Source: a phage. From it: a stretch of DNA of 64,000 nucleotides. The notes beneath the pieces are model-generated. The model saw only the letters and a program-made list of their open reading frames with translations. It was not told the DNA's origin and did not search any database. The stretch lies in the sequence record PZ476263.1. The stretch is one strand, 5' to 3'. How positions within the stretch are numbered: the stretch's first letter is position 1; every line of letters starts with the position of its first letter. Made by a program: the position numbers and the translations under genes. This document shows positions 50,654-52,282 of the stretch, piece by piece.

Positions 50654-50963
50654 TTAAATATGTAAGATTATTTTGTTGCCTGAGAGATTAGTCATCTTGA
50701 AGGCTGGGTGGGCAAATATAAGTTGGAACCATTATACCACCGACGCGATTTACGCTTTTGGTTGACTGTGACTAAATGGGATGCCCAGTCCATCCTTCTT
50801 TAAAACGGGGAGCCGTCGAAGATTGTCTGATTAGTGATTTACGGATCACTATAGTTTTACTACCACGACAATCTTTTACGGTGTACCCCTTGTCATGATG
50901 ACGAGGTTTAAGGTTATCCTGTCGTTAAATATCCAAAACCTGTTACCACCCACAAGAGAATTT

Positions 50964-51048
50964 AGCGCGGGTGTATCTCAACGGTCTTCTAAACCGTCGT
51001 TAATCGAGTAATTGGAGTATGAAGGTTCGAGTCCTTCCTCCCGCGCTA
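50964..51048 (+). other. tRNA-like element (non-canonical: acceptor + anticodon-like hairpin + T-arm, no normal D-arm)
   Basis: agcgcgg...ccgcgct acceptor-like pairing, hairpin acggt-cttctaa-accgt (TCT in loop), and T-arm gaagg-ttcgagt-ccttc; the anticodon hairpin sits too close to the 5' end for a standard cloverleaf. Confidence 0.25.
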
Positions 51049-51064
51049 AGTTCTTTTAAATGCA

Positions 51065-51140
51065 GGCCCTTTAGCTCAGTGGTTAGAGCAGGCGACTCAT
51101 AATCGCTTGGTCGCTGGTTCAAGTCCGGCAAGGGCCACCA
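51065..51140 (+). tRNA. tRNA with CAT anticodon (Met, or Ile2 if lysidine-modified), CCA encoded
   Basis: Hand-folded cloverleaf: acceptor ggccctt/aagggcc, D-arm gctcagtggttagagc, anticodon loop ctCATaa, T-arm gctgg-ttcaagt-ccggc; resembles recalled E. coli tRNA-Ile2. Confidence 0.7.
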
Positions 51141-51276
51141 CTCAATAGTTTATTTACAAGATCATTCAGTAATTAAGCGAATGCCGGAAGCAGAACCGGA
51201 TCAACAAATGCGTACGGGTGTCATCGCCACCTAGCAACTGAATGATCTTTTAAATTCTCTTAACCTCATAAAATCC

Positions 51277-51305
51277 TTGACATAATAAGAAATTCCTGAT
51301 AACAT
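51277..51305 (+). promoter_or_regulatory. sigma70-like promoter candidate
   Basis: TTGACA (51277-82), 17-bp spacer, TAACAT (51300-05), upstream of the gene starting at 51333. Confidence 0.3.
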
Positions 51306-51332
51306 CTCTATATCGACTTAATTGAGGTGCTT

Positions 51333-51707
51333 ATGCCTAAAGCTGAAATCGTTACTAGAAAACGGGGTCGGCCTACTACAGAGGAAAGTATCGCTATCAA
51401 CACCGAGAAGGCGATTCTTCATGCTCGTTCAGAGTTTGCAAGACTTACTCCTCAGGCGATTAAGACTCTGGAAGGTCTACTCACTTCCGGTACAGAGAAA
51501 GTTAAAGAAACTACTGCGAAGTATATTCTTGAACAGGCTGAAAAAGCTAACAATCTGTACACGATGGAAGATAATGAGGAAGATTTAGCGGGAGGTTCAA
51601 CTTCTGCGGATTCTGATACTCATAAAGGCCCTTCTGATGTATTTAAGGATGCAATTCCTCTTACTACTCAAATCAGAGAGTATAAAATTGCAGAAGGTGA
51701 AAACTAA
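51333..51707 (+). CDS. hypothetical protein
   Basis: ATG at 51333 preceded by gaggtg; 124 aa, hydrophilic; followed by a terminator hairpin. Confidence 0.45.
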   Translation: MPKAEIVTRKRGRPTTEESIAINTEKAILHARSEFARLTPQAIKTLEGLLTSGTEKVKETTAKYILEQAEKANNLYTMEDNEEDLAGGSTSADSDTHKGPSDVFKDAIPLTTQIREYKIAEGEN

Positions 51708-51728
51708 AGGCTCTTAGGGGCCTTTTAT
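51708..51728 (+). terminator. rho-independent terminator candidate
   Basis: Hairpin aggctc-ttag-gggcct followed by ttttatt. Confidence 0.4.
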
Positions 51729-51946
51729 TAATAGTTCTTTTTAATGTAGTTGCTTGGTGTAATTTTTCGGCAGATGGCTGCAACCATCCTATCGATAACT
51801 CATAGTTAGTGCTGCAAACACTGGCTACCTTAAAGAGAATTTAACTCGTCGAATAAGGAAGATGCTGATCTCAAAGTGAGGTCACTTACCGCAAGGGGTG
51901 TGCATAGACTCCCGCTTCCGAATAGACTATGTGGCGAGATGTATTT

Positions 51947-52028
51947 GGGGACGTGGCAGAGCGGTCGAATGCGCCTGACTGTAAATCAGGTATCCCACAC
52001 GGTGGTTCGAATCCATCCGGCCCCACCA
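51947..52028 (+). tRNA. tRNA-Tyr (GTA anticodon), CCA encoded
   Basis: Acceptor ggggacg/cggcccc (one A-G mismatch), D-loop gagcggtcgaa, anticodon arm cctga-ctGTAaa-tcagg, 10-nt variable region, T-arm ggtgg-ttcgaat-ccatc. Confidence 0.55.
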
Positions 52029-52282
52029 AATTAAGAAGCAGGGTCGCTACCTGCAAGTCGTCGGACTGAGATTCCCTGAATAAGACCCGACTTTAAGGCG
52101 TACAAATGTTCGGTTTAAAGTCCCTTATCTCACAGTCGAAACGGCGCATCCTATTCAGCCGTGATGTGATGTAATCACTGACCTCTTTGAAGGATCATGG
52201 CATCCTATACAAAAAAAAAACCTGAATAATTTAGGTTTTAATGCCTGGGGGTTCGTAGCCCTATTACTAAGAGGACTTAACT

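Follow-up and report, generated by a model that had tools for sequence, protein, structure and literature searches.

We asked what fills the long spacers of the transfer RNA (tRNA) cluster in a 64,000-nucleotide stretch of phage DNA (sequence record PZ476263.1; hereafter the window, numbered from its first nucleotide). The phage is a myovirus akin to Escherichia phages A7_1 and A5-4 (unclassified Vequintavirinae, about 145 kb). ARAGORN and Rfam both called five plus-strand tRNAs, at 51065 (Met), 51947 (Tyr), 52494 (Gly), 52668 (Gln) and 52748 (Pro), and 3′ of the cluster lie an Rz-like spanin gene and a terminase gene. The initial annotation had proposed that three stretches among these tRNAs (50655–50960, 51730–51946 and 52030–52280) hold no convincing open reading frames (ORFs) and may encode additional small RNAs. 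We found that the spacers contain four conserved structured modules, which we call A (50801–50941), B (51155–51252), C (51733–51842) and D (52030–52150), together with a tRNA-like RNA without a D arm (50967–51045), all on the plus strand. On grounds of homology, conservation, covariation, orientation and genomic context, we consider it probable that the spacers form a mosaic of separate genes for structured, non-tRNA RNAs, which would be co-transcribed with the tRNAs, released by tRNA processing and retained as stable RNAs; their transcription, processing, stability and function we infer from the sequence.

The non-coding character of the three stretches was borne out. The longest ORFs in 50655–50960 encode 40 and 38 amino acids, and every ORF of more than 40 amino acids in the other two stretches (52, 56 and 46) overlaps tRNA-Tyr. 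GC contents of 0.412, 0.419 and 0.430 compare with 0.399 for the whole window, in line with the description of the stretches as GC-balanced. The local self-complementarity that had been reported held for the conserved parts, with fold z-scores (minimum free energy (MFE) against dinucleotide shuffles) of −3.7 (50801–50941), −2.0 (51733–51844) and −2.5 (52029–52150), whereas the lineage-specific remainders gave weak values (−1.9, −0.8 and −2.0). The conserved module makes up only about half of each stretch, and a fourth spacer outside them (51141–51330) holds module B, with a z-score of −4.3 for 51156–51252. An Rfam scan, suggested at the outset as a check, found no family for any spacer, whether at gathering cut-offs or at the looser E ≤ 10: non-tRNA matches to Rfam 15 covariance models across 50400–53000 (E ≤ 10) were at chance level or tRNA-derived. 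The scan was empty because neither the modules nor T4 rnaC and rnaD have an Rfam family; Rfam likewise matched neither T4 rnaC, T4 rnaD, the T4 rIII–30.9 element, the lambda copy of B nor the copies of C. Homologs were found by BLAST against 50,697 phage records. The covariance analysis of related phages, also suggested, revealed helices kept by compensatory changes and G–U pairs; the alignments are small and of related sequences (7–20), and the counts below tally alignment cells, not independent events.

By homology, covariance model and covariation, module D is a full-length homolog of the T4 stable RNA rnaD and a new member of that family outside the Straboviridae. A BLAST search with 52029–52282 matched 721 of the phage records, nearly all T4-like and across the first 120 nucleotides (nt), and the RB5 feature beneath the match carries the label rnaD. 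The T4 record lists tRNA-Arg, rnaD (71053–71171, ‘species 2 RNA’) and rnaC in that order. Window positions 52034–52148 aligned with T4 rnaD positions 4–117 at 74% identity over 122 columns (E = 1e-13), and Dhakavirus copies were 87–88% identical to module D. The CCA end of tRNA-Tyr lies at 52028 and module D begins at 52030, a 1-nt gap equal to that behind tRNA-Arg in T4; the rnaD copies of Mosigvirus, Gaprivervirus and Carettavirus are preceded by a small ORF rather than a tRNA. The RNAalifold consensus of ten sequences from six genera has 24 pairs, with 99.2% of cells paired; its elements are a 7-bp closing helix, a long irregular stem and a 5′ hairpin whose loop, GUCGCUA, is invariant. Compensatory changes occur in 7 of the 24 pairs, the observed covariation score was reached by none of 500 shuffles, and slid controls were near zero.

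Module D and T4 rnaD (119 nt) are alike end to end, with the same helices, orientation on the tRNA strand and a terminator-like hairpin behind. They differ in genome (a Vequintavirinae-like myovirus, not a member of the Straboviridae), in the upstream tRNA (Tyr versus Arg), in the sequence of the apical hairpin and in the 3′ end (...GCGCAUCC versus ...GCGCACC(A)). The T4 partner rnaC (species 1 RNA, 139 nt) is absent from the window, where its best match was no better than E 0.15. A covariance model of D found exactly one copy in the window (133 bits), two in A5-4 and none in phi92-like, Phapecoctavirus, T5-like or rV5-like clusters. One A5-4 copy is orthologous to module D. The other, a short rnaD paralog of 102 nt (A5-4 positions 3033–3134), stands right behind tRNA-Met, at the position that module B occupies in the window; spacer content has therefore been swapped between close relatives.

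Module A (50801–50941), recognized by BLAST, covariation and its fold, matched 773 phage records. Window positions 50801–50938 are 82% identical to T4 positions 130615–130753 (AF158101), an unannotated stretch between rIII and 30.9, in the orientation of the coding strand, on which we found no publication. The structure comprises a 5′ domain of nested helices and a hairpin, followed by a highly conserved 3′ core, GGUUAUCCUGUCGUUAAAUAUCCAAAACC, that is nearly invariant across homologs. Pairing is retained in 98.9% of cells, G–U pairs are kept, and at four pairs both partners have changed (for example, CCGU/ACGG versus CCAU/AUGG). Two alternative pairings of the 3′ core were tried, and neither won covariation support. 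Helices and 3′ core are shared with the T4 rIII–30.9 element over about 140 nt, but the T4-like copies follow the protein gene rIII with no tRNA near, whereas the window copy and the phi92-like copies lie inside tRNA clusters; in the phi92/PD06-like phages (L009, positions 8410–8547, and L012) a T4-type version sits between tRNA-Gly and tRNA-Gln. T4-like copies carry insertions of 50–170 nt at one fixed site or are missing the 5′ domain (S16, KK4 and L010). A possible ORF of 33 amino acids spans the core in T4, but a 1-nt indel shortens it to 10 amino acids in RB51, and element A is therefore not coding.

The insertion site lies between CCUCUUGAAUGU and AUGAUGACG in the rIII–30.9 regions of T4-like phages (L008, L011, L015, L148 and L150), and one insertion holds a reverse-strand motif resembling a T arm; these insertions may be small mobile modules nested within the element. 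Separately, positions 8283–8713 of the phi92-like phage L009 hold the entire T4-type rIII–30.9 intergenic region, with a 28-codon ORF resembling the C terminus of rIII on its 3′ side. By its sequence, this region points to a recent transfer from a T4-like phage into a phi92-like tRNA cluster.

Module B (51155–51252) was defined by homology, stem types, covariation and a covariance-model score of 101.6 bits. It consists of a 13-bp closing stem (51158–51170 with 51237–51249) around a core of about 66–68 nt (51171–51236). The core is 91% identical to lambda positions 44866–44933, located between orf-64 and S, and is also found in rV5-like phages, D6, Salmonella phage ST1UNAM, more than 100 lambdoid viral contigs and 426 of 5,426 complete E. 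coli genomes (about 8%); no annotated feature lies on the B matches listed. The flanks of 142 copies reduce to 18 distinct flank pairs and these to six closing-stem sequence types, each self-complementary over 7–17 bp, whereas mismatched flanks of different types average 4.6 bp. Plain MAFFT alignment shifts the closing stem by 1 nt between types, which was fixed with a flank-complementarity script and a model-based alignment. In the model-based alignment 95.6% of cells pair and 11 of 19 pairs covary, comprising all nine stem pairs and two inner-hairpin pairs, and none of the five measures was reached in the shuffles (0/500).

Compared with the lambda late-operon leader (between tR′/orf-64 and S), the core is common and a closing stem encloses both copies, but the closing-stem sequences are wholly different. 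Lambda has no tRNA there, whereas one lies 5′ of B in the window, FV3, D6 and prophages, directly and co-oriented in the first three and in a prophage contig. Coverage of the B spacer stayed below 80% in every phage record, so the window’s copy is unique among the records searched. Two lambda small RNAs were considered for the match and ruled out: the northern probe for Hfq-bound LPR2 maps to 44817–44851, just upstream and without overlap, and PreS (PreS/LPR1) belongs to the early left operon. The LPR2 region itself (lambda 44817–44856, AAGAGUCGGCGAGCCUGGUUAGCCAGUGCUCUU) resembles the outer frame AAGAG...CUCUU of the D6, type-2 prophage and ST1UNAM copies, and LPR2 may be an ‘empty-frame’ relative of B’s outer stem. 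A motif, GUGCUCUUWCC–RUUGYGSUGAA, repeats at unit junctions. A scan of genome contigs for B yielded, besides chance matches, mainly lambda-type contigs of low coverage in assemblies of unrelated genomes (probably lambda contamination), and a metagenome scan with the 14-mer GTCGTTAAATATCC returned chance matches only.

Module C (51733–51842) is a three-hairpin RNA with a 16-bp closing stem (AGUUCUUUUUAAUGUAG... with ...CUACCUUAAAGAGAAUU). It matched 176 phage records, from T5-like phages, Phapecoctavirus, Justusliebigvirus, phi92-like phages, Vequintavirus and Avunavirus. Across these the closing stem surrounds one to several hairpins; a hairpin is duplicated in the long forms, and the Avunavirus interior is different. 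Wherever tRNAs were checked (at least four phage groups; the Avunavirus copy, Av-05, lay outside this check), C was on the tRNA strand and in or beside the tRNA array. It stands between tRNA-Ser and an unannotated tRNA-Tyr-like sequence in Phapecoctavirus, in or beside a tRNA array in Justusliebigvirus and phi92-like phages, 5′ of a tRNA-Tyr-like gene in T5-like phages, and in some Vequintavirus, lying between tRNA-Arg and tRNA-Tyr in 10C2, whose close relative FV3 is without it. The seven short forms share 37 pairs, 98% paired, of which three show double changes, with many one-sided G–U transitions; the covariation score was reached by 6 of 500 shuffles. A candidate shared loop motif, CUGCAA, was dropped when loops proved variable in further homologs. 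Stable non-tRNA RNAs from the tRNA region of phage T5 were reportedly described in the 1980s by Ksenzenko and colleagues; in that region, as represented by Tequintavirus and Epseptimavirus-type phages, C lies immediately 5′ of the tRNA-Tyr-like gene and is about 110–117 nt long.

Between modules A and B lies a tRNA-like RNA with the anticodon UCU (50967–51045), a sixth and weak tRNA match that was detected by Rfam (35.8 bits against a cut-off of 29) and not called by ARAGORN. It has an acceptor stem, an anticodon arm with the loop CUUCUAA and a normal T arm with a conserved T loop, as well as a 22-nt extra arm, YCGA-GUAA-UUGG, with a GUAA tetraloop. There is no D arm: 7 nt (UAUCUCA) separate the acceptor and anticodon stems, and the Rfam alignment places 4 nt there against 15 expected. 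The homolog in phi92-like phages (L009 and L012) ends in GCCA and has identical loops, with all five anticodon-stem pairs and two acceptor pairs changed compensatorily. The window RNA has the CUUCUAA loop of canonical coliphage tRNA-Arg(UCU), from T4, rV5-like phages and Phapecoctavirus, and like it a T arm, GGUUCGAGUCC, and a 7-bp acceptor stem; it differs in its lack of a D arm, its 22-nt extra arm, a U–U acceptor mismatch and a 3′ end of GCUA rather than GCCA. A normal tRNA-Arg(UCU) is absent from the tRNA sets of the window and the phi92-like phage as seen here, and related phages carry one at the equivalent place.

Further unannotated or aberrant tRNA-like genes were noted in related clusters, at FV3 positions 2397–2487 and 2586–2684 and at L009 positions 6533–6640. 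In FV3 a tRNA-Ser(UGA) is missing from the annotation, and a 99-nt tRNA-like RNA with a 4-nt anticodon is reported by ARAGORN as ‘???’. L009 carries an RNA in the style of T4 rnaC, with an acceptor stem and T arm only.

The strand of the modules is indicated by their pairing. Conserved G–U pairs in A, C and D would become A–C mismatches on the opposite strand, and the plus strand folded better than the reverse complement in all 11 A sequences, 9 of 10 D sequences and 5 of 7 C sequences. For B, the plus strand is favoured by G–U pairs in the type-2 and ST1UNAM stems and by co-orientation with tRNAs. The rnaD homolog, modules shared across phage families, compensatory changes and co-orientation with tRNAs together support the initial annotation’s suggestion that the spacers may encode extra small RNAs. 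Judged by sequence, A, B and C appear to be of the same kind as the T4 stable RNAs but to form distinct, previously undescribed families with no counterpart in Rfam. None of the copies that we examined is annotated as an RNA gene, the labels ‘hypothetical protein’ or ‘terminator’ occurring on a few, and we found no literature on these three modules.

Several observations weigh against the interpretation of the spacers as stable RNA genes. The covariation rests on few independent events in 7–20 related sequences, and with identities of 75–92% for most homologs, recent horizontal transfer may account for much of the conservation. The 3′ core of A, its most conserved part, shows zero covariation, one predicted A pair is broken in the S16, CW742 and L007 types, and the 5′ domain is partly deleted in KK4 and S16. 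Fitting to the model biases the alignment behind the pair counts of B towards the structure; one recombinant copy (L207) is without a closing stem, the copy in ST1UNAM is opposite in orientation to its flanking genes, and the reverse complement of B folds slightly better (−31.5 versus −28.7 kcal mol−1). No function has been established for T4 rnaC and rnaD themselves (PMC3014915, PMC9697503, PMC12685909).

If the modules are RNA genes, they would be transcribed jointly with the tRNAs from sigma-70-like promoters at 50640 and 51277. Maturation of the neighbouring tRNAs would release them: RNase P would cleave the next tRNA at its 5′ end, and the preceding one would undergo endo- and exonucleolytic trimming at its 3′ end. 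A long closing helix would join the 5′ and 3′ ends of each module and shield them, and the modules should therefore persist as stable small RNAs, as the T4 species 1 and 2 RNAs do. It is unlikely that the structures instead act solely in cis, as processing signals, end protectors, insulators or terminators of the tRNA precursor, and are degraded after processing. The long closing helices do resemble RNase III-type processing stalks, the modules abut tRNAs, UUUU follows the B stem in the window, a terminator-like hairpin stands behind rnaD, and element A is labelled ‘terminator’ in some T4-like records (H80). However, the U-tract is not conserved in other B copies, A in T4 and B in lambda have no adjacent tRNA, and the conserved loops and cores go beyond the needs of a processing stem. 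T4 rnaD and rnaC, moreover, accumulate as stable RNAs according to the T4 annotation and, for rnaC, detection as RNA by northern blot (PMC9697503), and D is homologous to the former.

The modules also behave as cassettes traded between unrelated phages, most likely by recombination or by homing-endonuclease co-conversion anchored on the adjacent conserved tRNA genes. SegB of T4 recognises the tRNA T arm (PMC2330249), and a homing endonuclease adjoins rnaD in AnYang. An alternative is that the spacers are passive hitch-hikers, which moved recently with tRNA genes and have yet to diverge, their structure being incidental. Identities are high, the phi92-like copy of A is almost identical to that of T4 with flanks included, and close relatives differ in the modules that they carry (C in 10C2 and not in FV3; B in the window and not in A5-4). 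We nevertheless regard passive carriage as improbable: helices are kept by compensatory double changes, six closing-stem sequences around one B core are not a product of drift, and the modules are retained in very different genomic contexts.

Endonucleases bear on a further explanation, namely that the modules operate as DNA, as recombination or homing-endonuclease targets, cruciforms or promoter cassettes like the promoter-early stem-loops of T4. Homing endonucleases do occur in or near the clusters (SegB in T4, PMC2330249; another next to rnaD in AnYang), T4-like intergenic regions show shuffling of small modules and the folding energy of B has no bias towards the plus strand. Such a role is very unlikely, given that neither a DNA cruciform nor the opposite strand could pair the positions conserved as G–U in A, C, D and the B closing stems, that the modules point the same way as transcription and the tRNAs in almost every context, and that the cores contain no properly spaced promoter consensus. 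Short ORFs exist (for example, of 38–40 amino acids at 50776–50898 and 50895–51011) and coding sequences are annotated over the homologous element in KK4, CW742 and UPEC06, but that the modules encode micro-proteins is scarcely credible, because no reading frame is conserved across module homologs: indels shift or truncate the frames (CCUGGUCG versus CCUGUCG and CCAAAAACC versus CCAAAACC), substitutions are compensatory in helices rather than codon-patterned, and the T4, RB51 and A5-4 records show no annotated ORF at this place.

It is decades since the T4 species 1 and 2 RNAs became known. The full-length rnaD of a myovirus unrelated to T4, together with the second, shorter copy in its sister phage, now provides a consensus at the level of structure, which reveals the constrained nucleotides and therefore the positions to mutate. 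Covariation-supported, unannotated modules occur even in the most studied phages, in the rIII–30.9 gap of T4 and the late leader of lambda, which suggests that phage tRNA clusters carry a common accessory RNA toolkit. Our broader proposal is tentative: A, B and C may be three new families of structured phage RNA which, with rnaD and the aberrant tRNA-like RNAs, form a pool of cassettes moving beside tRNA genes among T4-, lambda-, T5-, rV5-, phi92- and P1-like coliphages. B, an invariant core with a probable pseudoknot in a freely varying stem, could on this proposal be a new class of functional RNA, such as a ribozyme, a sensor of a ligand or protein, or a decoy that counters a host nuclease or defence system. 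Viral tRNAs are known to counter tRNA-targeting defence systems, and the neighbouring RNAs are therefore obvious candidates for similar roles. We can only speculate, with low confidence, that during infection these RNAs bind host factors involved in RNA processing or defence, or serve as decoys for them. The modules are small enough for testing by deletion.

Other features complete the locus. Putative sigma-70-like promoters lie on the plus strand at 50640–50668 (TTGACA-17-TAAGAT, 10 of 12 consensus matches), heading the first tRNA/small-RNA unit, and at 51277–51305 (TTGACA-17-TAACAT, with TG). The two tRNAs among the modules are tRNA-Met (CAU; 51065–51140) and tRNA-Tyr (GUA; 51947–52028). Two segments appear to be lineage-specific: a 5′ leader (50672–50800, plus strand), present in close relatives only, with 4 records covering at least 80% of the 312-nt query, and the spacer from module C to tRNA-Tyr (51843–51946, plus strand), covered by 6 records. 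BLAST of the phage records and the fold z-scores gave no sign of separate elements in either.

An A10 run lies exactly where it had been placed, at 52211–52220; rather than a small-RNA feature in itself, it forms the 5′ arm of a terminator-like hairpin, AAAACCUGAA-UAA-UUUAGGUUUU (52211–52239, from sequence and MFE). The hairpin (52217–52239) has a 10-bp A/U-rich stem, followed by U4 on the plus strand and U10 on the minus strand, and falls below the criteria of the terminator scan. It looks like a weak terminator on both strands and would end the tRNA-Tyr/rnaD unit ahead of the ORF at 52283. The scan did report a terminator-like site at 52872. Two small ORFs lie among the tRNAs, both without a Pfam match: 52283–52492 (phrog_3909) and 51333–51707 on the plus strand, which encodes 124 amino acids (phrog_3330, E = 7e-29) with an RKRGRP motif at the start of the product. 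Behind the latter, a plus-strand terminator-like hairpin (about 51708–51727) was read from the sequence and was not called by the scan. Downstream of the cluster, the terminase large-subunit gene is interrupted (53696–56420): an N-terminal terminase ORF (53696–54052) is followed by an HNH endonuclease ORF (54148–54825), and an Rfam group I intron (54986–55290, 78.7 bits) precedes the C-terminal terminase ORF (55293–56420).

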